Assembly (NCBI GenBank): GCA_003554845.1
Contig: PWHK01000002.1
Coordinates: 3,538-67,537, forward strand
Length of the DNA: 64,000 nucleotides
Source: Candidatus Aenigmatarchaeota archaeon
GTDB lineage: Archaea; Aenigmatarchaeota; Aenigmatarchaeia; PWEA01
Reading direction: 5' to 3'
Shown piece after piece: positions 3,290-57,958 of the stretch. The first letter of the stretch is position 1, and each line of letters opens with the position of its first letter. Position numbers and translations under genes: made by a program. Below the pieces are notes generated by a model that was given only the letters and a program-made list of their open reading frames with translations, had not been told where the DNA came from and ran no database searches.

Positions 3290-4810
3290 CTAACTCAGTT
3301 TTCCGTGCCACAGACCATCTTTCAAACTTTTACCTTCTCTTTGTTCCCATTCATCTATGGGTATGGAGTTTTTCTCACGGATCTTCTCACCTACTCCAAG
3401 GCCGTTGTATGCACAGAAAGGTACCATCCCCTTGGGGGTGGTGTACTGTATTACGCAGCTACTTAGTCTGTTTATATCAAGATTCCATGCATCCTGGAAC
3501 CACATGCTCCCTATGTAAAGGGTTTTTTTGTGGAACTTACCCAGGGATTTGTAGTCTCCTCCTACAAGGGCATTTGAAAGTATCTTCTTTATGGATATAT
3601 CTTCTGGAACCTTTTCGGAGTCTATAAAGTCCGGAAGGGTTGTCATGAGAGAGGACATTATCCTTGTCTTTTTGAAACGTCCATCCTTCTTCGATAGTCT
3701 GTTTATGAAGTCCATAAGACCTTCTACATCTACAAATCTTGTTATCGGTATAATCTTTCCATCCTCTACGAAGGCATATGTTGCTCCACCACATGTCGGA
3801 TGGGCGGTGAACTCGACCTGTTTTTCGTTTTTTACGCTTTCAATCAGCTTCGACACGGGATATACAAAGGGAACAGGATACCAGTCATCTCTGCTGAGTT
3901 CGCCGTCCAGTTGCTTGTTTAAAGCCTCCATCATTTCAGAATAGTCGACTCTCTGTTGTTTTCTGTAGTCGTCGTCTACCTCTGTTATTCTTCCTGTGAA
4001 GGCAAGCGGCTGGAAGTTAACACCTCTTACAACATCTATATTTTCCTGGGCAAACCTCACTATGTCCCCGGCTTCATGTAGATTATTTTGTGATAGTACA
4101 GGAACAAGAACAATGCTTCCCATGCCGAATTTCCGCATGTTTTCAATTGCCTTTTTGTTCTGTTCTATCCAGGAGTTTGTTTCTTCTGTAACTCCATCGA
4201 AGCTCAGGTAAAGTGTATTAACAGCACTTTCCGCCAACTTCTTGGCGAACTCCTCGTCCTCGGCTATGTCTATTCCATTTGTATTTAGTTGTATGTGTAC
4301 AAAGCCCTTTTCGTCTGCCATCTCTATTATGTCGAACAGGTCGTCTCTGACTGTAGGTTCTCCACCGGTTATCTGTATTGATTTGGAACCAACAGGTTCT
4401 ATATTTCTCGCCTGGTCCATGAGTTCCTCTATCTCATCAAGGGTGGGTTCATATACATAGCCGGATGCACCTGCATTCATAAAGCAGTAAGAACAGCGCA
4501 GGTTGCAGCGGTTCGTGACGGTTAGATTTGTTAGAACAGACTGTGATTTGTGATTGTCGTAAAGAGAAAGATCCTCTACCTTGACCTTTTCAACTCCGCT
4601 ACCCTCTCTTTCGTACCTTTTCCATTTTCTATAGTCTTCGGGTTTGCTGAATATTATCGCCCGGAAGGTTCCATGGTCTCCACATTCCTTTTTAAGCCAT
4701 ATTTTTCCGTCTTCTTCGATGACCTCTGCGTCTATTTTCTGTAAGTCTCCTTTCTTGAGGCATTCTGGACATACAGACTCAGTCTTTTCCAGGATCTCCA
4801 TAATTATCAA
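3290..4810 (-). CDS. Radical SAM enzyme with N-terminal Cys3His zinc-ribbon-like domain and C-terminal Cys-containing domain (possibly tetraether-lipid-synthase-like)
   Basis: 506 aa. CNLRCSYC (CxxxCxxC) near residue 100, GGE motif QITGGEPT, LNTNG. N-terminal CPEC...CGDHG. C-terminal cysteines HPTCGG and CVIQY...FCAYN. Confidence 0.85.
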   Translation of the reverse strand: MIIMEILEKTESVCPECLKKGDLQKIDAEVIEEDGKIWLKKECGDHGTFRAIIFSKPEDYRKWKRYEREGSGVEKVKVEDLSLYDNHKSQSVLTNLTVTNRCNLRCSYCFMNAGASGYVYEPTLDEIEELMDQARNIEPVGSKSIQITGGEPTVRDDLFDIIEMADEKGFVHIQLNTNGIDIAEDEEFAKKLAESAVNTLYLSFDGVTEETNSWIEQNKKAIENMRKFGMGSIVLVPVLSQNNLHEAGDIVRFAQENIDVVRGVNFQPLAFTGRITEVDDDYRKQQRVDYSEMMEALNKQLDGELSRDDWYPVPFVYPVSKLIESVKNEKQVEFTAHPTCGGATYAFVEDGKIIPITRFVDVEGLMDFINRLSKKDGRFKKTRIMSSLMTTLPDFIDSEKVPEDISIKKILSNALVGGDYKSLGKFHKKTLYIGSMWFQDAWNLDINRLSSCVIQYTTPKGMVPFCAYNGLGVGEKIREKNSIPIDEWEQREGKSLKDGLWHGKLS

Positions 4811-6331: not shown

Positions 6332-6408
6332 TGGAGCCGGGCGCCGGATTCGAACCGGCGTACGCGGATCTGCAGTCCGCTGCCTAAGCCTGACTCGGCC
6401 AGCCCGGC
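6332..6408 (-). tRNA. tRNA-Cys(GCA), no intron, CCA encoded
   Basis: gccgggc-tg-gcc...ggc-a-gcgga-ctGCAga-tccgc-gtac-gccgg-ttcgaat-ccggc-gcccggc-t-cca. All four stems pair; about 66% GC. Confidence 0.9.
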
Positions 6409-16360: not shown

Positions 16361-16628
16361 GGCAGGGAACTTCCGGGTCGACGGAACCGACTGGAAAAGT
16401 TTACCTGTCTTCCTCCTCGGCTCTGCTACCCCCCGAACATCCATACTACAGCTTAGGGCTGCTCCCGCCAGGGCCTGGCCCGTTTCACTGCACCATAGAT
16501 CCCGGAGGACAGAGCTTCGACGTTGGAAAACAGGGCTTTTCCAGCCGGATCTGCCTGGCCGGCTCTTCGGTTGCTCTGTAGAGGATTTGAGCTCCAGATG
16601 ACCCCTAGCCATCCAACCTATCCCTGCC
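16361..16628 (-). ncRNA. Signal recognition particle RNA (7S/SRP RNA)
   Basis: GC-rich island. Minus strand contains helix-8-like GGUGCAGUGAAACGGGCCAGGCCCUGGCGGGAGCAGCC, compared from memory with the E. coli 4.5S GGUGCUG...GGAAGGAAGCAGCC motif. Terminal 8-bp helix ggcaggga/tccctgcc. TTTAAA about 23 nt upstream of the 5' end. Confidence 0.8.
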
Positions 16629-44967: not shown

Positions 44968-45375
44968 TTACTTTTTATTTTTATAGTACTCTGAGAAAAT
45001 CTCCTCGTCTCTTTTGTCTTTTGTCATATATGGAGGGTAGTTCAGAAGTTTAAATCTTCCCAGATCTGATTTTCTTATAAGATGTGGCGATATCTCATAC
45101 TCGTCGAAGTCCTTTACAATTTCATCAAGGGGCTCTGCTATTTCATCGTATTTTTCCACGTCCTCGCAGATGAATACAAGGTCTATATCCGAACCTTCCT
45201 TTGCTTCGTTTCTGGCAACAGAACCATATATAGCACCTACCTCAACAACTTCCCCTAGATTTTCGTAGGTTTTTTCTATGAACTCGGCTCCCTTGTATAC
45301 CATTTTTCTCGACAGTGGATCAAAACCATCGGGATCGATCTCTGTGGTATTTTTGTTACCTTTGAGTAAATACAT
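44968..45375 (-). CDS. Minimal nucleotidyltransferase (MNT-like)
   Basis: 135 aa. GAIYGSVARNEAKEGSDIDLVFICED. Confidence 0.65.
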   Translation of the reverse strand: MYLLKGNKNTTEIDPDGFDPLSRKMVYKGAEFIEKTYENLGEVVEVGAIYGSVARNEAKEGSDIDLVFICEDVEKYDEIAEPLDEIVKDFDEYEISPHLIRKSDLGRFKLLNYPPYMTKDKRDEEIFSEYYKNKK

Positions 45376-45411: not shown

Positions 45412-46602
45412 CTACTGTCCCGATGTCAGTATCTTTACTATGTCTCCGTTTTCGAGAACCCTATCAGAACCTACCCTTCTTCCTGATCTGCAGTCTTTTG
45501 CTCCTATGAAGTCTTCTCCTATGTCACTGTGTACCTCGTAGGCGAGGTCCTCTGTAGTCGATCCGTTTTCTAGTAGTACAGCATCCGGAAGCACATTTCC
45601 CTTTTTGTCTGTGTAGCTGTTCTCGTTTTCAACAGGATAGACAACTATCATATCGAGAAGATCAAAGACGGCTCTGTTGACTGTTTCCTGTACCCCTGTT
45701 GAACCATAATTGTCGAGTATTTTCCTGACAAAATCGAGACCCTTTCTTTCCCTTTCGGATATACTTTCTTCATCCAGGATCTTGAAGTCTTCGTCTCCGG
45801 CTACGTAACTTACTTTTTTCTGTTCTGAAGCCTTCCTCAGGGCCAGCTCGGCCTCGGCACAGCAAGGTATCACGTCGATATCTATCTTTTTCTTGAGATC
45901 CTCCAGTTTTTCCTCTGCTCCGGGTATATCTATCTTGTTTGCTGCTACCACCATGGGCTTAGTTATCTTGCGGAGCTCCGTTGAAAAATTGTTTATGTCT
46001 TCTTTATTCCATTTGCTAGGATGGTCTCTGTCCAAGTCCAGTCTACCTAGTGTTTTTTTTATGTCGTCTCTGTCTATCTTGAGGCCGGAGAACCTTGACA
46101 GGAGCTGTTGCTCGAAGTCCTTGTTTTCCATTTCTATCTCCGAGGATAAATTGCTCCACTCTCTTCTGAATATATCTCTGTACCAGAAGTCCAACTCTCT
46201 CTCAAGAAACTCTATATTTTTATATGGGTCGTATCCTTCCGTTGGTTCACCCTCCGAGTCCGTTCTTCCTGATATATCAAGTACATGTATAAGAACATCG
46301 GCCTCCCGCAGATCGTCCAGGAACTGATTGCCAAGTCCCCGTCCTTCGTGTGCATCTGGAACAAGACCTGCTACATCCAGCATCTTTACAGGAACAAACC
46401 TCATGCCATCTATACATTTTCCGTTGGGGTCACATGAAACACCCAGTTCTCTACACGGACATTCAACTGTAACGTATCCTATCCCCTGGTTTGCGTCTAT
46501 GGTTGTAAAGGGGTAGTTGTTTATCTCTATGTCGGCCATTGTACAGGCCTTCATGAACGTTGATTTCCCTGTGTTTGGAGCACCTACAAGACCAACTTTC
46601 AT
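45412..46602 (-). CDS. OBG-family GTPase with C-terminal TGS domain (YchF/DRG-like)
   Basis: 396 aa. G1 GLVGAPNTGKST, G-domain motifs. C-terminal TGS-like ENGDIVKILT. Confidence 0.75.
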   Translation of the reverse strand: MKVGLVGAPNTGKSTFMKACTMADIEINNYPFTTIDANQGIGYVTVECPCRELGVSCDPNGKCIDGMRFVPVKMLDVAGLVPDAHEGRGLGNQFLDDLREADVLIHVLDISGRTDSEGEPTEGYDPYKNIEFLERELDFWYRDIFRREWSNLSSEIEMENKDFEQQLLSRFSGLKIDRDDIKKTLGRLDLDRDHPSKWNKEDINNFSTELRKITKPMVVAANKIDIPGAEEKLEDLKKKIDIDVIPCCAEAELALRKASEQKKVSYVAGDEDFKILDEESISERERKGLDFVRKILDNYGSTGVQETVNRAVFDLLDMIVVYPVENENSYTDKKGNVLPDAVLLENGSTTEDLAYEVHSDIGEDFIGAKDCRSGRRVGSDRVLENGDIVKILTSGQ

Positions 46603-46732: not shown

Positions 46733-47236
46733 ATGGAAACCGGTATATGTGAAGTATGTTTGAAGAACGATATGCTCTGTGAGGGCTGTTCCAAGAAGCT
46801 GGAGAATGGAGAAATATCGGAGAAGGCAGTTGAGATATCTAGGTATCTATATTCGCTTGCAGAGGAGTATTCCTACCTTGAGGATATAGAGGTAAATGAG
46901 ATCTACGTAGGAGAAGAGGTTATTGTGATTGTTGTTAAAAAAGAGGACGTAGGTAAGGTGGTGGGTAAGGGAGGAGAGATAGTCAAGAAACTTGCAGGAA
47001 GGGTGGAGAGAGCAATACGTGTCGTTGAGATGGCAAAGGATGTAAAGAAGTTTTCACAGAATCTCCTTCCAGATGTAAAGGTATACGGTGTAAACAGAGT
47101 CTTTTCACCCGATGAAGATTATTACAAGATCATAGTTAGTTCCGATGACTCCAGGAGAATAATGTTGAAGGAGGATGAGTTTTCCGAGGTAGTTGAAAGG
47201 GTTACAGGAGAAAGGGTTAAACTTTCTTTTAGATAG
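46733..47236 (+). CDS. KH-domain RNA-binding protein with N-terminal CxxC...CxxC zinc ribbon
   Basis: 167 aa. CEVCLKNDMLCEGC, then the KH GxxG loop VGKVVGKGGEIVKKL. Confidence 0.5.
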   Translation: METGICEVCLKNDMLCEGCSKKLENGEISEKAVEISRYLYSLAEEYSYLEDIEVNEIYVGEEVIVIVVKKEDVGKVVGKGGEIVKKLAGRVERAIRVVEMAKDVKKFSQNLLPDVKVYGVNRVFSPDEDYYKIIVSSDDSRRIMLKEDEFSEVVERVTGERVKLSFR

Positions 47237-47985: not shown

Positions 47986-49743
47986 ATGCGAATTGCAATC
48001 GTTGATAGAGAGAGATGTAATCCCGAGAAATGTAACTGGGAATGCTTCAAGGCATGTCCGATCAATAGAAAGGGGGAAGAATGCATCGTTAAAGGTAAGA
48101 AGGCAGAAATAGAGGAGGCACTATGTATAGGCTGTGGAATATGTGTATCCAAATGCCCCTTCGACGCAATAAAGATTGTTAATACACCCGAAGAACTGGA
48201 AGAGAGGCCTGTCCACCGCTTTGGAAAAAACGCATTTGTTCTTTACAGGCTTCCTATACCTAAGCCAGGAGGGGTTGTTGGTCTTCTTGGTGGAAACGGA
48301 CTTGGGAAGTCGACGGCTCTCAAGATACTTTCTGGTAACATAAAGCCCAATCTCGGCGAGTCCGAGGAGGAATCTTCTCTAGATGATATATCAGGACTTT
48401 TTAGAGGCACCCAGCTACAGGAATATTTCCATGAGATGGAAGATGAGAAGAGAACTGTCTACAAACCACAGAGGGTCGAGGAAATACCAAGGATGTATAA
48501 AGGCAGAGCACGGGACTTTCTGGAGAAAACAGACGAAAGAGGAGTTCTCGATCAAGTTCTACGTAGATTGAGCATAGAAAATGTCATGGATAGAAACCTC
48601 GGCGAGCTTTCAGGTGGGGAGCTACAGAGGGTTGCGATAACTGCTACAATCTGCAGAGATGCGGAGATATACTACTTCGACGAGCCGTCTTCCTATTTGG
48701 ATGTCTATCAGAGGCTTCAGATGGGCAAGCTTATACAGAACCTGGCAGAGGATAGAACAGTTATGGTCGTGGACCATGATCTTGCTACGCTCGACTACCT
48801 TGCCGATACTATACATGTATTTTACGGAGAACCAGGTGCCTACGGTATAGTTTCAAAACCCTACTCCACGAGAAAGGGAATAAATGCATACCTTGAGGGC
48901 TATATAAGAGAGGACAACGTACGTTTCCGGGAAGATCCTGTTAAGTTTGGTATAAGGGCCCCTACAAAGGAGAGGAAGGTAAGTTCTCTTCTTGAATTTC
49001 AGAAAACCGAAAAGAAGCTTGGCGACTTTGAACTCACAGTCGAGAAGGGAAACCTTGCGAAAAAGGAACAGCTTGGAATTTTTGGAGCCAATGCCCTCGG
49101 TAAAAGTACGTTTGCTAAGATACTTGCAGGTGAAATGGAAGCAGATAGCGGAGGACCTGATAGGAACGTGGAGATTTCTTACAAGCCTCAGAAGATAGAA
49201 ACAGGTGGTGAAGGGAGGGTTATAGATTTTCTGTCGAGGGTAGTTGACAATCCATATTCAAACGATTTCAAGAACCAGATACTCCGTCCCCTTGGACTCG
49301 AAGATCTTCTGGAAAACAAGGTATCGACGCTTTCCGGTGGTGAAAGACAGAGGCTTGCAATAGGTGTCTGCCTTTCAAGAGATGCAGATATATATCTAAT
49401 GGACGAGCCCTCTGCGTATCTGGATGTAGATCAGAGACTGAGAGTGGCCAAGCTTATTAGATCCGTTTCTTCACGCAACGAAGCATCCTGTATGGTTATA
49501 GACCATGATATACTTTTCCTTGATTATCTCTCAGATAGAGGCATGGTTTTTCTCGGTGAGCCCGGTATAAGAGGTAGGGCACTTAAGCCTGGAGAACTGG
49601 AGAAGTCCTTCAACAAGTTTCTGGATGACGTTGGAGTTACATTCAGGAGGGATCCCCAGACCGGACGTCCACGTGCAAACAAACCCGACTCGGTTAAGGA
49701 CAGGGAACAGAAGGAGAGTGGCAACTACTACTATATAGAATAA
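47986..49743 (+). CDS. abcE1: ABCE1/RLI ribosome recycling ATPase
   Basis: 585 aa. N-terminal di-cluster ferredoxin CNPEKCNWECFKACP + CIGCGICVSKCP. Two ABC cassettes (LLGGNGLGKST, IFGANALGKST; LSGGE signatures). Confidence 0.95.
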   Translation: MRIAIVDRERCNPEKCNWECFKACPINRKGEECIVKGKKAEIEEALCIGCGICVSKCPFDAIKIVNTPEELEERPVHRFGKNAFVLYRLPIPKPGGVVGLLGGNGLGKSTALKILSGNIKPNLGESEEESSLDDISGLFRGTQLQEYFHEMEDEKRTVYKPQRVEEIPRMYKGRARDFLEKTDERGVLDQVLRRLSIENVMDRNLGELSGGELQRVAITATICRDAEIYYFDEPSSYLDVYQRLQMGKLIQNLAEDRTVMVVDHDLATLDYLADTIHVFYGEPGAYGIVSKPYSTRKGINAYLEGYIREDNVRFREDPVKFGIRAPTKERKVSSLLEFQKTEKKLGDFELTVEKGNLAKKEQLGIFGANALGKSTFAKILAGEMEADSGGPDRNVEISYKPQKIETGGEGRVIDFLSRVVDNPYSNDFKNQILRPLGLEDLLENKVSTLSGGERQRLAIGVCLSRDADIYLMDEPSAYLDVDQRLRVAKLIRSVSSRNEASCMVIDHDILFLDYLSDRGMVFLGEPGIRGRALKPGELEKSFNKFLDDVGVTFRRDPQTGRPRANKPDSVKDREQKESGNYYYIE

Positions 49744-49768: not shown

Positions 49769-50203
49769 CTATCTTCTTGGCTGTCTGCTTATCTTCCTAT
49801 CTATGTCTTCGAGTCTTCTGAGTATTTCCTGTAACATCTCCATGGTATCATCTTCTCTTCTATCTCTCGGTGGCCATCTTCTTGCCCTCTGTGTCCTGGG
49901 TTCTCTGTCTGGTTTTCTGTCTCTGTTGTAGTTATTTCTGTTCTCCGCAGGTCTCTGTCTTCCTATTTTTCTGCTTGGTTCAGAGCGCGGTCTTCCGGGG
50001 TTGTTTGTGTTCTGTCTTGTTCCTATCCTTCCGACGCTCTCCTCGGATGGTAGATCAAGATCCCTTCTTTTGTTTCTGTTCGATATAGGAGATCTGTTGT
50101 ACTCGGTGTCTTCGTCGATGCTGGATACCCTTTTTATATTTCTATTTCCAGAACCTTCCTTTTTATCTCCACCGACCATGTCCTTTATTTTGCCCAGTAC
50201 CAT
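49769..50203 (-). CDS. Highly basic, Arg/Asn/Pro-rich low-complexity protein
   Basis: 144 aa, about 25% Arg, RNA-binding-like disordered composition. C-terminal helical segment MEMLQEILRRLEDIDRKI. Confidence 0.4.
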   Translation of the reverse strand: MVLGKIKDMVGGDKKEGSGNRNIKRVSSIDEDTEYNRSPISNRNKRRDLDLPSEESVGRIGTRQNTNNPGRPRSEPSRKIGRQRPAENRNNYNRDRKPDREPRTQRARRWPPRDRREDDTMEMLQEILRRLEDIDRKISRQPRR

Positions 50204-50278
50204 AATTTTATTATTGTCGGGGAGTATTTATTAGTGTTGTAGCTCAGAAAATTTAATGTTCCACGGGGTAAACCATCT

Positions 50279-51556
50279 ATGCCTGTTAAAACTGTAGATG
50301 AGTCGAAGAGCAAAGGACCGACAAAGAGTGTAAGTTCCCTCAGAGAAAAGAATCTCCCCTTTGCAGGTAAACCCGGTTTTCCTTCGGGCATATACTTCGG
50401 TATGATAGACATACTAGAGGACAACATGGGCTACGAGGTCAGAAAGGTAAAGGATTGGATAGAGGTCAATCCCCAGTCGTCCTTTTACGACGAACTTGCC
50501 CAAAGAAAGCAGTCCATAGAGCAGCAGGTAGGTGCAGTTACAAACAGAATTTCTGATACAAGAAAAACTCTTGAGATGCTCCGGCACGACAAAAGAAAGC
50601 TCCAGAGAATCATCGATCATAAAGAGGAAGGTGATCTGGATGTCTTGAAAAGCGACTTTGTCGACCTCGTGGATAGAAATACAAATATGAGTCTTCTTGA
50701 TCTGGCAAACAGTGGGAGACTTCCTTCCATAATCGTTGACTTCTATAAAGTCGAGGATAAGGAGGACATCGAAAATCTGGAAGTTTCAAAGGGAGAGAAG
50801 CAGATACTCAAAAAGAAATGGTCCCTTTTCCAGGACTGGAAGAAGAGGTTTGTCGGCGAGATAGAAAGAAGGATGTCCACTATAGAAAGTGAGATAAGGT
50901 CACACGAGGAGACCATAGACAATCTTAAGGATACTCTACATCCATATGCAAAGGCCCTTAAGAGGATAAGGTTAGGTGAACCAAAGGAATACCACGGCAT
51001 AGACGATCCAAGGGTCATAGAGAGATATGCGAACTCTATATGTGGAGTCGACCTCTATGCCTGGAAAGACCTGAGTTCTATGTCCTTCTACGCAGAGGAA
51101 GATGTTATAAAACCCGAGGTTTATGAAGAACTTTCTGGTGAGGAGCCGGGTTACGAGTTCTACTCATTTTTTGAAATAAGCGTCAGAAAGAAGAGTTCCG
51201 TTGTCTCCGGTGAGAGCATGGAGATTGTTGTCATAAGCATAAATCCACAGCTTCTCCACCGTAAGGATCTCATTGAGAAGAAGAAGCAGCTGGAAAAGGA
51301 AAAGAAGAAGTTGTACAACTCTATACAGAGACTGAGCGGAGAGCCTGTCGAAGTCGAGGAAGAAGAGGAAGAGGAAGACAGTATGGGAGATCGTGTCAAG
51401 GACTTCGGAAAGAAAATACTGGGTATTCCCGATGTGAGGAATGGTCCACATAGAAGCGAGTTCGAAAATATAGTCGCCGAGGAAACAAACATACTTTATG
51501 AAAGAGTAAAGGACCTGGGAGATGGCCTAAAGCTCTGGAAGTTCAGAAAGGGTTGA
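50279..51556 (+). CDS. Hypothetical coiled-coil protein
   Basis: 425 aa, long heptad-like K/E segments, poly-Glu stretch. No motif recognised. Confidence 0.5.
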   Translation: MPVKTVDESKSKGPTKSVSSLREKNLPFAGKPGFPSGIYFGMIDILEDNMGYEVRKVKDWIEVNPQSSFYDELAQRKQSIEQQVGAVTNRISDTRKTLEMLRHDKRKLQRIIDHKEEGDLDVLKSDFVDLVDRNTNMSLLDLANSGRLPSIIVDFYKVEDKEDIENLEVSKGEKQILKKKWSLFQDWKKRFVGEIERRMSTIESEIRSHEETIDNLKDTLHPYAKALKRIRLGEPKEYHGIDDPRVIERYANSICGVDLYAWKDLSSMSFYAEEDVIKPEVYEELSGEEPGYEFYSFFEISVRKKSSVVSGESMEIVVISINPQLLHRKDLIEKKKQLEKEKKKLYNSIQRLSGEPVEVEEEEEEEDSMGDRVKDFGKKILGIPDVRNGPHRSEFENIVAEETNILYERVKDLGDGLKLWKFRKG

Positions 51557-53256
51557 TCAATTTGCTTAAAACAATAAAGAAGTCCCTTGGTTTTTCAGAA
51601 GAGAGGAGGAAACTGGAACCCGAAGGATACATTGTACAGGCAAATTCCTGGCCTGAGATGGCCCAAAAGAGAATACTCGAAGAAGTTTCTTCTCTTTCTC
51701 AAAAGGGAGTCTCTTCCATCGAGATCACTCTAAACCATCCCGAATCACTGACCCCACATGCTGTCAGGGAAATAAAGAACTTCCACGAACAGGAAGATGT
51801 TAAGGTCAATATACACGCATCGCTCCAGTTGAGGACAGCCATGGCTGAGAAGAAGAGCTATAAGCGTGTAGATGAGTACATGAGAGGGTTTATACAGAAG
51901 GCTGATGAGATAGGATCCAGTTATGTAAATGTTCATACCTCCCTGTTTCCAAGCCCTGAACTTGGTAGGATGAGGGGAGTAATGTACGAGGTCATGTACC
52001 ATCCTGATGGATATCCTATAGTTGACTTCCTCGAAGAGCTCAAGGACAAATACTTTGACTCGGAGACCTTTGAATGGATAGTCAGGGATCTGAAGAAGAA
52101 GGTCGGGGTTCCTCAGGGCGGTAGGATAGCTGAAGTTATCTCTTCCAACGAAGAATATCTGGAAGATCTTGTTAGTGAAGAAGAGATTTCCATGTTGAAG
52201 AGTCGGATGGAAGACGATCCTCGTGTGTCTTCAGAAGAGGTAACCAGAGAAATGGCAAGGAATAGGATTTTAAATGAGCTTATGGGAAGTAGACAGCGAA
52301 TTTTAATGAAATACCGTGAAAAGGATCAGGACTTCAAGCTTAAAGTCGAGAAGGATGCTCTCAGGGAAGTGATCGAAGAAGGTGATATAGACCTTGAGAG
52401 AATTTTTAACGAGTTCAGAACCTACCAGTTGATAGGCTGGTGGATGTATGAAAAAAATGATCCTATATGGAGGAAGATATGTGGAAAAAGGAGCCCGAAG
52501 GATCTGGAAGAGGAAAAGAGCATGGATCTCTTGGTGGATGCTGTTGCCGGTAGATATATACAGGGACATGTCAAAAACTGGAACAAGGAGTTAGAGGGTA
52601 CAGATGTAGTTGTGACCTTTGAGACACCTGATGCAAGAGAATCAGAGTTTCTTGGATACTACAGACTGGTTAATCCAAAGCATATATACAGAGTTGTCAA
52701 AGCCATAGATCATTCACAGATAAGGCTTTGTTTTGACTTTGAACATATAGCGACCCAGGGACTTAATCCAAAGAAAATTCTCAGGGAAACTGAAGATAAC
52801 ATTGGAGAGGAAACTTATCTGGTCCATCTATCCAGTAGGCCTTCTCCAGGTCATGAGCACTTTCCACTTCAGAAGGGTGAACACCATCTCTACGAGATGC
52901 TGTGGGAACTCAGGAAAAAAGGTTTTGAGAGGGGTTATATCAGCTTCGAGAGAGGAGGTGGCCAGGGAAGCGGTGGTGAAGGAGATCAGGTCTGGAAACA
53001 GTCTATATCTATAGTCAAGGACATGGCCATGTATCTCGAAGACGGAATATCTCCAGGTGAGCTTCCAATTGAGTTTTATGGTTACAGTGACAAGGAGTTC
53101 AAGAGGGATCAGGCAGTTGTTCAGAGCAATACCTTTGAGCCTATAAAGGGACTTATCGAGTCTCCACAGATGCAGGACACCTTCCTTGGAAAACACGCTA
53201 CTGAAACGGAGCCCAGGATGCGCGGCGATGGTTGGAAAGAAGAAGAACACCAGTAG
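51553..53256 (+). CDS. Xylose-isomerase-like TIM-barrel (AP-endonuclease family 2 / sugar-phosphate isomerase-like) protein with ~190-aa insertion
   Basis: 567 aa. N-terminal barrel strands (VNIHASL, YVNVHTS). C-terminal metal-ligand pattern LCFDFEH, YLVHLSS, HEHFP, ISFE. Long charged insert between. Confidence 0.45.
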   Translation: MINLLKTIKKSLGFSEERRKLEPEGYIVQANSWPEMAQKRILEEVSSLSQKGVSSIEITLNHPESLTPHAVREIKNFHEQEDVKVNIHASLQLRTAMAEKKSYKRVDEYMRGFIQKADEIGSSYVNVHTSLFPSPELGRMRGVMYEVMYHPDGYPIVDFLEELKDKYFDSETFEWIVRDLKKKVGVPQGGRIAEVISSNEEYLEDLVSEEEISMLKSRMEDDPRVSSEEVTREMARNRILNELMGSRQRILMKYREKDQDFKLKVEKDALREVIEEGDIDLERIFNEFRTYQLIGWWMYEKNDPIWRKICGKRSPKDLEEEKSMDLLVDAVAGRYIQGHVKNWNKELEGTDVVVTFETPDARESEFLGYYRLVNPKHIYRVVKAIDHSQIRLCFDFEHIATQGLNPKKILRETEDNIGEETYLVHLSSRPSPGHEHFPLQKGEHHLYEMLWELRKKGFERGYISFERGGGQGSGGEGDQVWKQSISIVKDMAMYLEDGISPGELPIEFYGYSDKEFKRDQAVVQSNTFEPIKGLIESPQMQDTFLGKHATETEPRMRGDGWKEEEHQ

Positions 53257-53291
53257 GCAAACTTTTAAATAGTATAAGTTGTAACTATTAA

Positions 53292-54671
53292 GTGGTAAAA
53301 GGTGAAACCATGCCAGAAAGAAATGATATTGATTCTAATGGACTGAAGCCTGATGAGACGTTTGTCGGTAAAGCCAAGGACTTCCGTTCCACAAAAAGAA
53401 AGATAAAGGACTTCCAGAAAAAGCGGAGAATGGATGCCGCCGAGAAGTTTAAGAAAGAGGCACTAGAGAAGCACGGCAAATATATCAATGCTATAATTGG
53501 AACAGGATCTGTTACCAGGGATGAATTCTCCTCGGAATCGGATCTTGATATAACGGTTTTTGTCGACGATACAAAGGAGGGTGTCGACAGGAAGAAGAGA
53601 AAGGAGATAGAAAAAGACCTCAAGGAAATAGCAGATGACTGCGGAAAGACTAAGTCTGGCAGCCACATACTACATGTTCAGCCACCCTGGACTATAACGG
53701 AGTACTGGGACATGATGAGGAGAGGAAGCCCTGTGGCACATTCCTGGACACAGGATGCTACTGCTTTCTACGACGAAGGATTTTTCGGTCCAATACAGAG
53801 GCTTTATAAGATGGGCAAGCTCCCGGCGACAAGGAAGTCTGCGGAGAAGAGAATGTCCAAGGTTCCGAAGAGGCTTAACCGTGCGGAGAGAATGAAGGTT
53901 CTCATAGTTGCAAAGGACATATACAATGCTATGACAAACTCTCTTCAGGCAGTTATTGTCTATATGGGCGAGGAGGTTCCTGCACCTAAGCAGCTTGCAA
54001 AGATAGCCAGGGAGGAACTGGTATCACGTGATCTCCTTGCTGAGGAATATGTAAAACAGTACGAGGAAGTTTATTCTCTCTACAAGGACGTTGAGCACAA
54101 CAACATAGATACAATGAAAGGTGAGAAGGTCGATGAGTACATAGACATGGGTAAGAAGTTTGTAAACGAGATGCAGAAACTCATGAAGAAGATAGAGATA
54201 AGTAGAAAGGCGAGAAAGATACAGTCAAACTACGAGTCTATGATAAAGACATCTGTTGCTGCTCTCAAGGCCCTGGACAAACTTCCCGAGGATCCAAAGG
54301 ATTTACCGGATGCATTCAACAAGCATCTCATAGAAGAAGAGCTAATAGATCCACGGTACAAGAAGACACTGGGTAAGGTTCTTGAGATGAAGAAGAAGCT
54401 CAACGACAAAGATGTGGAGGATATAACAGAGCATCAGATAAATGTTGCAAAGGACTTTGTCAAGGGATTTATGAGAGATATACATGGACTTCTCAAGGAA
54501 AGGGATCTCAAGCCAGAGGACATAAAGGAGAGTATGAAACCGAAGAATGCACCCAAGCCCGATGAAATCGACCCGGAAAAAAACAAAGACAGTTTCAAAT
54601 GCGATGAGTGTGGTAAGGATTTCAAGAGTGAGAAGGGTCTTAAGATACATAAAAGCCGGGTTCATGGTTGA
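53292..54671 (+). CDS. Nucleotidyltransferase-domain protein with helical body and C-terminal C2H2 zinc finger
   Basis: 459 aa. IIGTGSVTRDEFSSESDLDITVFVDD (GS...DxD). C-terminus FKCDECGKDFKSEKGLKIHKSRVHG. Confidence 0.55.
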   Translation: MVKGETMPERNDIDSNGLKPDETFVGKAKDFRSTKRKIKDFQKKRRMDAAEKFKKEALEKHGKYINAIIGTGSVTRDEFSSESDLDITVFVDDTKEGVDRKKRKEIEKDLKEIADDCGKTKSGSHILHVQPPWTITEYWDMMRRGSPVAHSWTQDATAFYDEGFFGPIQRLYKMGKLPATRKSAEKRMSKVPKRLNRAERMKVLIVAKDIYNAMTNSLQAVIVYMGEEVPAPKQLAKIAREELVSRDLLAEEYVKQYEEVYSLYKDVEHNNIDTMKGEKVDEYIDMGKKFVNEMQKLMKKIEISRKARKIQSNYESMIKTSVAALKALDKLPEDPKDLPDAFNKHLIEEELIDPRYKKTLGKVLEMKKKLNDKDVEDITEHQINVAKDFVKGFMRDIHGLLKERDLKPEDIKESMKPKNAPKPDEIDPEKNKDSFKCDECGKDFKSEKGLKIHKSRVHG

Positions 54672-57568: not shown

Positions 57569-57958
57569 ATGGAAAAAAACCAGCTCGAGATGAACAGGAA
57601 AGGAGACCTTGCGGCTCTTGTAACCTTCTGTGTTGATTCGGAGAAGTTCAAGTCCAACTACGAGAGAAATAAGTTTTACAGAGGTTTATATGGATGGAAA
57701 CAGAGGGTAAGAAAGGGAGGAAAGGAATACTTATACGACCACAGAGGTCTTCTGGACAGGATTCCACATATAAAGGTCGACAAGTCTGTCTGTATAGTTC
57801 CGGCGGGTATGGTGGACACGTTTGTTGACTACCTTGAACAGTGGGGCGACAGGGTCGACTACAGTATTTTCAAGGTCCTACTTCAGAAGGATAGATTTAA
57901 AAAAATGAAAACGAAAGAATACGAAGACAGTGGGTGGATCGAAGTTAAGATAGAATAG
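57569..57958 (+). CDS. Hypothetical protein
   Basis: 129 aa, protein-like composition, between radB and cdc48. Confidence 0.4.

Follow-up and report, generated by a model that had tools for sequence, protein, structure and literature searches.

What is the function of four genes that lie between ABCE1 and a type IA topoisomerase in the genome of Candidatus Aenigmatarchaeota archaeon? We addressed this question for a stretch of 64,000 nucleotides (nt) of contig PWHK01000002.1 (assembly GCA_003554845.1, forward strand, positions 3,538 to 67,537), which we call the window and whose coordinates are used throughout. The genes, referred to as g1 to g4, occupy positions 49769 to 54671, and an earlier reading of the sequence (the original prediction) could not match them to any described system. 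Our best guess, made with low confidence, is a housekeeping role: the genes would act as a module for healing and tailing the ends of nucleic acids, probably of RNA. We estimate a probability of roughly one in three that the cluster encodes a complex processing nucleic-acid ends, most likely RNA 3' ends. The features on which the argument draws are listed here, with protein lengths in amino acids (aa).

45412-46602, minus strand: YchF/Ola1-type GTPase/ATPase, the second conserved upstream neighbour (context)
47986-49743, plus strand: ABCE1, the upstream neighbour on the same strand as g2 to g4 (context)
49769-50203, minus strand: g1, 144 aa, a largely disordered Arg/Pro/Asp-rich protein, divergent from g2
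50204-50278: spacer of 75 nt that separates g1 from g2; its sequence is rich in AT, has TATA-like stretches and is presumed to hold the putative promoters of both genes
50279-51556, plus strand: g2, 425 aa (from the open reading frame list, alignments and an AlphaFold2 model)
51553-53256, plus strand: g3, 567 aa from a TTG start, a split AP_endonuc_2 TIM barrel
51973-52557, plus strand: insertion that parts barrel strands 3 and 4 of g3 (residues 141-335)
53023-53253, plus strand: C-terminal extension of g3, residues ~491-567, outside the PF01261 match
53257-53309, plus strand: spacer between g3 and g4, with TATA-like TTTTAAATA and a GGTGA Shine-Dalgarno-like motif, followed by ATG at 53310
53292-54671, plus strand: g4, 459 aa from a GTG start (probably 453 aa), a predicted fusion of a minimal nucleotidyltransferase (MNT) and a HEPN-like domain
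54081-54098, plus strand: Rx4H site of the HEPN-like domain of g4, residues 264-269, YKDVEH
54594-54665, plus strand: C2H2 zinc finger of g4, residues 435-458, C-x2-C-x12-H-x4-H

Conservation of the gene cluster

To find related loci, we applied a pattern scan built from the g2 alignment to one genome per GTDB species, which gave 32 loci, and the open reading frames of all loci were then searched with hidden Markov models (HMMs) of the g2, g3 and g4 families. The loci are titled Aenigmatarchaeota, uncultured archaeon, archaeon or Nanobdellati, with one exception that is labelled Micrarchaeota, and the named homologues of the cluster proteins all belong to 'Candidatus Aenigmatarchaeota archaeon'. 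The genes g2, g3 and g4 follow one another in this order on one strand in about 25 of the 32 species-level loci (those with enough DNA), as well as in metagenome contigs, and the order persists in deep lineages in which g2 identity is only 24-31%. In the public gene calls, the distance from g2 to g3 ranges from -1 to 24 nt. Because the same order recurs phylum-wide, the arrangement is non-random, and the synteny across related genomes, which the original prediction had proposed to check, is strong.

The upstream neighbours are conserved as well. ABCE1 lies 0.1-3.7 kilobases (kb) upstream of g2 in 25 of 35 distinct g2-bearing loci, at 46-86% identity, and these orthologues carry the Fer4_RLI domain and two ABC_tran domains. 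In most loci either ABCE1 (on the same strand as the cluster), YchF or both are found a few kb upstream, and the genes downstream of the cluster vary by clade, being headed in the window by the type IA topoisomerase. The identities of g2, g3 and g4 drop in parallel with those of ABCE1 and YchF; among close relatives, for example, g4 is 80-83% identical and ABCE1 83-86%. Because the identities of the cluster proteins track that of ABCE1, inheritance is vertical: the cluster is a fixed, vertically inherited single locus typical of the phylum Aenigmatarchaeota, and not a mobile island. We also considered a viral or mobile origin and rejected it, since a search of 2.9 million viral contigs yielded no relative of either g2 or g4 and a fold search of g2 against BFVD returned noise (TM-scores around 0.1).

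The split TIM barrel of g3

The original prediction described g3 as a xylose-isomerase-like barrel in two halves around an insertion of about 190 aa, and this description holds well. The protein matches Pfam PF01261 (AP_endonuc_2) at 62 bits (cut-off 31.1) in two stretches, and when residues 141-335 are removed, the score is 67.2 bits and the match runs end-to-end, over profile positions 5-247 of 249. The insertion has 195 aa here and 143-225 aa, at the same point, in 22 of 22 family members. Its first part is variable and charged and its last ~50 residues are conserved (YxLIxWxMYE..DPIW..ICG...LVDAVAGxY); taken alone, it has no match in Pfam. A C-terminal extension of ~75 residues is conserved too (LPxEFYG...FxPxxGL...W..EExR).

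We were particularly interested in the residues that would bind metal. Nine ligands were confirmed in the sequence of Escherichia coli endonuclease IV (Nfo), namely H69, H109, E145, D179, H182, H216, D229, H231 and E261. In the alignment of the g3 family, H88, H128, E357, D395, H425, H436 and E466 are invariant, and H398 (Gln in two members) and H434 are near-invariant. A global MAFFT alignment of Nfo into the g3 family misplaced most ligands, and so we used local HMM and hhalign alignments together with motifs. These pair Nfo H69/H109 with g3 H88/H128 and D179/H182 with D395/H398, while the remaining ligands are matched by motif and spacing only. The first two His are 40 residues apart in both proteins and the last His and Glu 30 residues apart in both, and the spacing across the insertion is 36 in Nfo versus 229 in g3. 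The likeness to Nfo consists of the PF01261 superfamily and of His, Asp or Glu residues that probably correspond, with near-identical spacing, to the nine ligand positions. However, g3 differs from Nfo by the insertion between strands 3 and 4, by the conserved C-terminal extension, by a His (H434) at the position of Nfo D229, by scores below the family cut-offs and by its placement after g2. Because its ligand-residue pattern resembles that of endonuclease IV, we read g3 as a predicted multinuclear metal phosphodiesterase; endonuclease IV and CbiR appear to be closer models for it than the sugar isomerases.

Among named NCBIfam families, the core of g3 without the insertion scores best with CbiR (NF041277; E 2e-10, 40.4 bits against a cut-off of 105), a metal-dependent cobamide-remodelling phosphodiesterase (PMC7733943) of the same superfamily. 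Deoxyribonuclease IV models match at E-values of 5e-5 and 8e-4; in bits, NF002198 gives 23 (cut-off 244) and TIGR00587 gives 18.7 (cut-off 129.65). Unlike g3, CbiR has neither an insertion nor a partner gene, and no cobamide genes were found near the cluster in any locus. The best sequence relatives in the PDB are MJ1311 (3wqo), which is listed as a predicted endonuclease IV homologue of M. jannaschii (PMC2770678), and then 6khy, the AP endonuclease of African swine fever virus (ASFV; PMC7076025). A literature search on the function of MJ1311 or on endonuclease IV of Aenigmarchaeota returned nothing specific.

Other barrels occur near the cluster in individual genomes. A CbiR-like TIM barrel of normal size (L001:10059-10835(+); 104.1 bits, cut-off 105) lies between g4 and the topoisomerase in one close relative, and a related small barrel (L040:14173-14679(+)) lies near the cluster in a distant lineage.

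The nucleotidyltransferase g4 and its helical domains

The g4 protein consists of a basic disordered N-terminal tail, a Pol-beta-type nucleotidyltransferase domain, a HEPN-like domain and further helical domains as judged from its structural model, a disordered linker and a C2H2 finger. The nucleotidyltransferase motif noticed originally is well supported: g4 matches PF01909 at 29.1 bits (cut-off 21), and G72, S73, D84 and D86 of the GS...DxD motif are invariant in 27 sequences, as are the candidate third carboxylates D92, D93 and D161. In a profile search against PDB sequences, kanamycin nucleotidyltransferase (KNTase) was found at 2e-7 and MntA antitoxins also matched. The AlphaFold2 model (predicted local distance difference test, pLDDT, 79) has a nucleotidyltransferase domain followed by long helices, with a disordered N-terminus and a disordered linker before the finger. 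Its top Foldseek matches are KNTase, HalB, ANT(9), AadA, MntA and the HEPN protein AF0298; the alignment with KNTase spans about 270 columns (E 8e-4, probability 1.0), with global TM-scores of only 0.2-0.35.

What had been called a helical body is indeed helical, and the matches to KNTase and AF0298 allow a sharper assignment: according to the model, it is a HEPN-like domain and g4 is an MNT-HEPN fusion of the KNTase type. With the kanamycin nucleotidyltransferase ANT(4')-Ia and other such fusions g4 shares the succession of a nucleotidyltransferase and a HEPN-like helical domain. However, g4 is almost twice as long as ANT(4')-Ia, has an extra helical domain (about residues 277-405), basic tails and a finger, and lies in a housekeeping rather than a resistance context. 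A DPANN-specific cluster with an MNT fused to HEPN in a housekeeping context, cls.004259 (NEQ050), was reported by Makarova, Wolf and Koonin in 2019 (PMC6393860). The description of this cluster fits g4, which may belong to it, and the paper makes no mention of a link to g2 or g3. Nothing specific on NEQ050 was found in the literature.

The HEPN motif of the g4 family has the consensus RKxVEH (Rx4H), and RKxxEH is kept in 14 of ~22 locus orthologues and in P0068-P0086. In the window, the corresponding residues are Y264-K-D-V-E-H269, so that the Arg is lost and the Rx4-6H pattern of HEPN ribonucleases is absent. In HepT toxins the motif is followed by a Tyr; the g4 consensus lacks this residue.

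The C-terminal finger, CDECGKDFKSEKGLKIHKSRVH, fits the pattern C-x2-C-x12-H-x4-H, in keeping with the C2H2 finger of the original prediction, and scores 20-22.5 bits with the Pfam models zf-C2H2_6/_4/C2H2, just under their cut-offs of 25-27. It is present only in the closer orthologues (12; P0053-P0068), and distant ones have a Lys-rich tail in its place. All g4 orthologues have the basic N-terminal tail, and tails and finger together suggest that g4 binds a polyanion.

The profile and fold searches assign the four genes to no housekeeping family, and two specific identities of g4 that had been proposed for checking do not apply. It is not a class I CCA-adding enzyme, as it has no tRNA_NucTransf2 match in Pfam or NCBIfam and the top 50 Foldseek results include no CCA-adding enzyme; a canonical CCA1 has been reported in DPANN genomes outside Pacearchaeota (preprint 10.64898/2026.05.29.728689). 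Nor is it a cGAS/DncV-like nucleotidyltransferase (CD-NTase), given that the window protein has no PADLOC CD-NTase match and that its Foldseek matches include neither cGAS nor DncV.

The family also occurs in other forms. In two deep lineages g4 is represented by two separate, consecutive nucleotidyltransferase genes of ~285 aa and ~376-413 aa that both match the g4 profile (L008:10265-12264(+) and L040:10522-12878(+)), and in a third lineage a form of 644-660 aa has an extra degenerate nucleotidyltransferase-like repeat at the N-terminus (P0084/L007:7977-9935(+)). A 650-aa gene in L005 was considered as a g4 homologue and rejected by BLASTP.

New families: g2, g1 and the c5 genes

For g2, the original description as a coiled-coil protein captures one part of the structure. 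The AlphaFold2 model (pLDDT 69) does contain a long helical hairpin (residues 68-117 and 171-229), but beta elements are present as well: a beta-alpha-beta unit (24-63) precedes the hairpin, and a beta-sheet (252-327), a helix, an acidic linker (354-380) and C-terminal helices follow it. Of the alignment columns, 26 are invariant, and polar residues are frequent among them (K56, W60, E62, H103, D104, R106, D129 and D154). When 1.84 billion representatives were searched exhaustively with HMMER, 411 clusters were recovered at E<=1e-3, most of them with proteins of 500-650 aa. Among ten clusters of distant relatives, the one with an organism name belongs to Aenigmarchaeota. Nothing consistent was found in Pfam (22 members scanned), NCBIfam or PDB sequence profiles, and the model has no significant match among PDB and BFVD folds. 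Weak resemblances to Ups1/START-like proteins, chemoreceptors and SMC arms (E >= 0.09, probabilities mostly below 0.4) were taken as noise. Judged by its alignment and these searches, g2 is a conserved new protein family.

The g1 protein is largely disordered, as the original prediction had it; its Arg content is 20.8% and not about 25%. It contains no Cys and has no match in Pfam or NCBIfam. Homologues of g1 occupy the equivalent position, with unchanged orientation, both in the clade of the window and in an intermediate clade ('c7', 111-161 aa). We take g1 to be a real gene because three short motifs, MVLxKIKxM at the N-terminus, RxDLxLPSEE in the middle and EILRRLDxIDRKL in a C-terminal helix, are kept in these two clades together with position and orientation.

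In deep lineages, g1 is replaced by two tandem paralogous genes of ~170 aa ('c5'), divergent just upstream of g2 (L008:4372-5429(-), L033:5288-6315(-), L038:5453-6468(-) and 10 further loci). One c5 gene follows g2 directly in L031, and in L007 a c5 pair is found close to a gene resembling g4 (L007:11695-12234(+)). The residues G23, W55, G88, G98 and Y138 are invariant, and no relatives of c5 were found in Pfam or the PDB. Homology of c5 to g2 was considered and rejected (hhalign E = 0.12, not significant).

In sum, g2, g1 and c5 are new families, and g3 and g4 are new architectural variants of known superfamilies. The failure of the original prediction to match the set is borne out: a system with this combination of genes was found neither in Pfam, NCBIfam and PADLOC nor in the searched literature.

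A possible role in nucleic-acid end processing

Since g3 keeps a complete set of predicted metal-ligand residues and g4 its nucleotidyltransferase motif, both are probably active enzymes. From the sequences of the components we infer a nucleic-acid-directed activity of the cluster. In the scheme that we consider best, g3 would remove a blocking phosphate or phosphodiester, e.g., a 3'-phosphate or a 2',3'-cyclic phosphate left by HEPN-type cuts. The Lys-rich tails and zinc finger of g4 would anchor this protein to the polyanion, its HEPN-like domain would bind the substrate and, in most lineages (those with an intact Rx4H), g4 might also cut the substrate; it would then add nucleotides to the freed 3'-OH. 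The g2 protein, which is probably translationally coupled to g3, could dock on the insertion of g3, either as a coiled-coil scaffold or as a partner with a regulatory role, and g1 could be a disordered adaptor. We prefer RNA to DNA as the substrate because HEPN domains, to our knowledge, act on RNA, because the neighbours are translation factors and because one clade has genes for tRNA modification downstream of the cluster.

A more specific version of this scheme, which is rather doubtful, is that the cluster is the RNA 3'-end quality-control machine of this lineage, coupled to ribosome recycling driven by ABCE1. Cut or damaged tRNA or rRNA would be the substrate: g3, on a scaffold of new fold, would strip the 3'-phosphate or cyclic phosphate, and a domesticated MNT-HEPN enzyme would re-tail or mark the RNA end.

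It is important to consider several observations that weigh against RNA-end processing. No component of the cluster matches a family of proven RNA-end function. All scores of g3 with named families are far under their cut-offs, and the AP_endonuc_2 superfamily also includes sugar isomerases and dehydratases. The enzymes closest to g4 in fold modify small molecules (KNTase, ANT(9) and AadA) or proteins (MntA) by nucleotidylation, and not RNA. The cutting step cannot be general, given that members of the window clade read YKDVEH or HKDVER. As to gene order, L005, L038 and L039 have no adjacent g4, there is no g3 beside g2 in L027 and L031 (elsewhere g2 sits directly upstream of g3), and ABCE1 was not found within 4-7 kb in four deep loci. 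More generally, genes in small genomes may keep their order without having a common function, and the linkage to ABCE1 may be nothing but the frozen gene order of such genomes.

Alternative explanations

The alternative that survives best, possible although on balance unlikely, is that the ends are those of DNA and the cluster carries out a base-excision type of repair, with g3 as an endonuclease IV-type AP endonuclease/3'-diesterase, g4 as a DNA-end nucleotidyltransferase tethered through its zinc finger or Lys tail and g2 as an SMC/Rad50-like scaffold. The ligand pattern of g3 and its two best PDB relatives, MJ1311 and the ASFV enzyme, are what such a role would lead one to expect, and g3 does match deoxyribonuclease IV models; however, it does so at 18-23 bits where the cut-offs are 130-244. 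Genes for topoisomerase IA and RadB come after the cluster in the clade of the window, but this adjacency is limited to close relatives, whereas the adjacency to ABCE1 and YchF is phylum-wide. The weak matches of g2 to the SMC-like coiled coils ASRP, LmuB and JetC are compositional, and g2 has no ATPase head. Moreover, the presence of a HEPN-like domain argues for RNA, as set out above, and we know of no MNT-type enzyme that acts as a gap-filling polymerase.

A domesticated switch of the toxin-antitoxin kind seems to us quite improbable. Here an MNT-HEPN ribonuclease controlled by nucleotidylation would tune translation (dormancy) in host-dependent cells, g3 would undo the modification by hydrolysing the phosphodiester of tyrosyl- or seryl-AMP, and g2 and g1 would be regulators. 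The combination of MNT and HEPN is a hallmark of type VII toxin-antitoxin systems (HepT/MntA), g4 matches structures of MntA and HEPN proteins, its Rx4H motif is intact in most orthologues and the neighbours are translation factors; Makarova et al. likewise read the DPANN family as derived from toxin-antitoxin systems and unusually conserved (PMC6393860). Yet g4 is one fused chain, no separate HepT toxin gene was found at the cluster loci, and g4 reaches 21.6 bits with the MntA equivalog NF047752, whose cut-off is 60. The distribution is vertical and phylum-wide, neither patchy nor mobile. The Tyr after the HepT motif is missing, and the ribonuclease motif itself is degenerate in the window clade although the protein is ~80% conserved there. 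As for the proposed role of g3, we know of no precedent for de-AMPylation by a TIM barrel.

Somewhat weaker still is the idea that the cluster salvages or remodels a nucleotide-containing small molecule, such as a cofactor, nucleotide sugar or lipid head group, with g3 cutting a phosphodiester in the manner of CbiR and g4 re-nucleotidylating a hydroxyl in the manner of KNTase. It would account for CbiR, with the chemistry cited above, being the best named family of g3 and for aminoglycoside nucleotidyltransferases being the best fold relatives of g4. DPANN archaea rely on salvage, and the near-threshold CbiR-like barrel and a NUDIX hydrolase by the cluster in L001 and the small barrel in L040 would also suit it. 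However, the basic tails and finger of g4 point to a polyanionic substrate, the HEPN ribonuclease motif is conserved, there are no cobamide or other cofactor genes near the cluster loci, and g3 falls 65 bits under the CbiR cut-off.

A defence against viruses along the lines of Hailong, CBASS or MNT-HEPN systems, in which a nucleotidyltransferase would act as sensor or effector, seems to us very improbable. The nucleotidyltransferase and helical region of g4 do resemble HalB of Hailong (PDB 9dbh-9dbj; Foldseek E 3e-3, TM-scores 0.16/0.33), but the cluster has no HalA-like partner and is not mobile. The g4 protein also matches the candidate defence MNT models PDC-S09 and PDC-M70A; these PADLOC matches, however, span only the generic ~60-residue nucleotidyltransferase core, and the g4 of the window has no CD-NTase match. 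With the gene set as a whole, PADLOC-DB 2.0 gave only generic MNT models and coiled-coil noise, and g1 and g3 matched nothing. The cluster is also fixed, vertical, single-copy per locus and flanked by core genes phylum-wide, and the search of viral contigs was empty.

Finally, by analogy with MbnBC (DUF692/MNIO), g3 and g2 might be a metalloenzyme pair that modifies g1, the barrel being multinuclear, the partner gene abutting and the adjacent small protein conserved in short motifs, but this is hardly credible given that neither g3 nor its core has a DUF692 match in Pfam at E<=1, that g1 lacks Cys and that deep lineages swap g1 for unrelated 170-aa proteins while g2 and g3 persist.

Start sites and other genes

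All four open reading frames that had been predicted are present at their coordinates, and the public record of the contig (GCA_022257675.1, JAKOPF010000011.1) has gene calls for g2 to g4 with identical products of 425, 567 and 459 aa. The overlap of 4 nt between g2 and g3, another feature of the original prediction, hinges on the TTG at 51553. With this start it stands, but the N-termini of g3 orthologues align with a second TTG (51562; MLKxIKK), 5 nt past the stop codon of g2, which is more likely to be the true start and would remove the overlap; the two genes abut with either. The N-termini of g4 orthologues align to Met7, and the ATG at 53310 is therefore probably the start of g4. This gene may have its own putative internal promoter, at 53265-53285 in the spacer after g3.

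Several genes adjoin the cluster in other genomes. A calcineurin-type metallophosphoesterase (PF00149/PF12850) is next to g4 in two clades, convergent or co-directional depending on the locus (L003:9901-10530(-), L024:11090-12058(+), L029:11418-12263(+), and also L017, L019, L020, L022 and L023). In the intermediate clade it is followed by Trm1 and a TrmY-like RNA methyltransferase; none of these three genes occurs in the window. The NUDIX hydrolase mentioned above (L001:4752-5165(+)) overlaps the end of ABCE1.

The window itself contains some further features. A gene for a 135-aa minimal nucleotidyltransferase (44968-45375, minus strand; GSVARNEAKEGSDIDLVF) follows YchF after a gap of 36 nt; the two share a strand and are probably co-transcribed. 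The nucleotidyltransferase is a weak match to the g4 profile (E 5e-6). Between YchF and ABCE1 there is a gene (46733-47236, plus strand) whose product of 167 aa has Cys residues clustered at its N-terminus and a weak KH_2 domain, and ahead of Cdc48 there is a gene for a 129-aa protein without a family (57569-57958, plus strand). Both are conserved with their neighbourhood in close relatives, and the KH protein can still be recognised in some of the deep lineages, with 28-29% identity in L033 and L037. Two tRNA genes (2386-2479 and 6332-6408, both on the minus strand) encode the 3' CCA; the first, of 94 nt and with an apparent intron, was detected by Rfam and missed by ARAGORN. An archaeal signal recognition particle RNA is found at 16361-16628 on the minus strand (Rfam RF01857, 129 bits).

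Implications

A multi-gene cluster that is kept phylum-wide in tiny DPANN genomes, beside core translation genes, likely has an indispensable role. It contains two unusual architectures of familiar folds, a barrel with an insert of ~200 aa and an MNT-HEPN protein with a zinc finger. The cluster also ties a priority unknown flagged for DPANN in 2019, the 'MNT fused to HEPN in house-keeping context', to fixed partner genes, and this link of the DPANN MNT-HEPN family with g2 and g3 appears to be previously undescribed. If the healing and tailing of RNA ends is indeed what the cluster does, it would represent a new route of RNA repair or turnover, and in the quality-control version it would be an archaeal counterpart, made from unrelated parts, of the eukaryotic ANKZF1/ELAC1/TRNT1 tRNA repair. 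Should the enzymes turn out not to act on RNA ends in this way, the cluster would still be a clean example of a module of the toxin-antitoxin type recruited to a core role.

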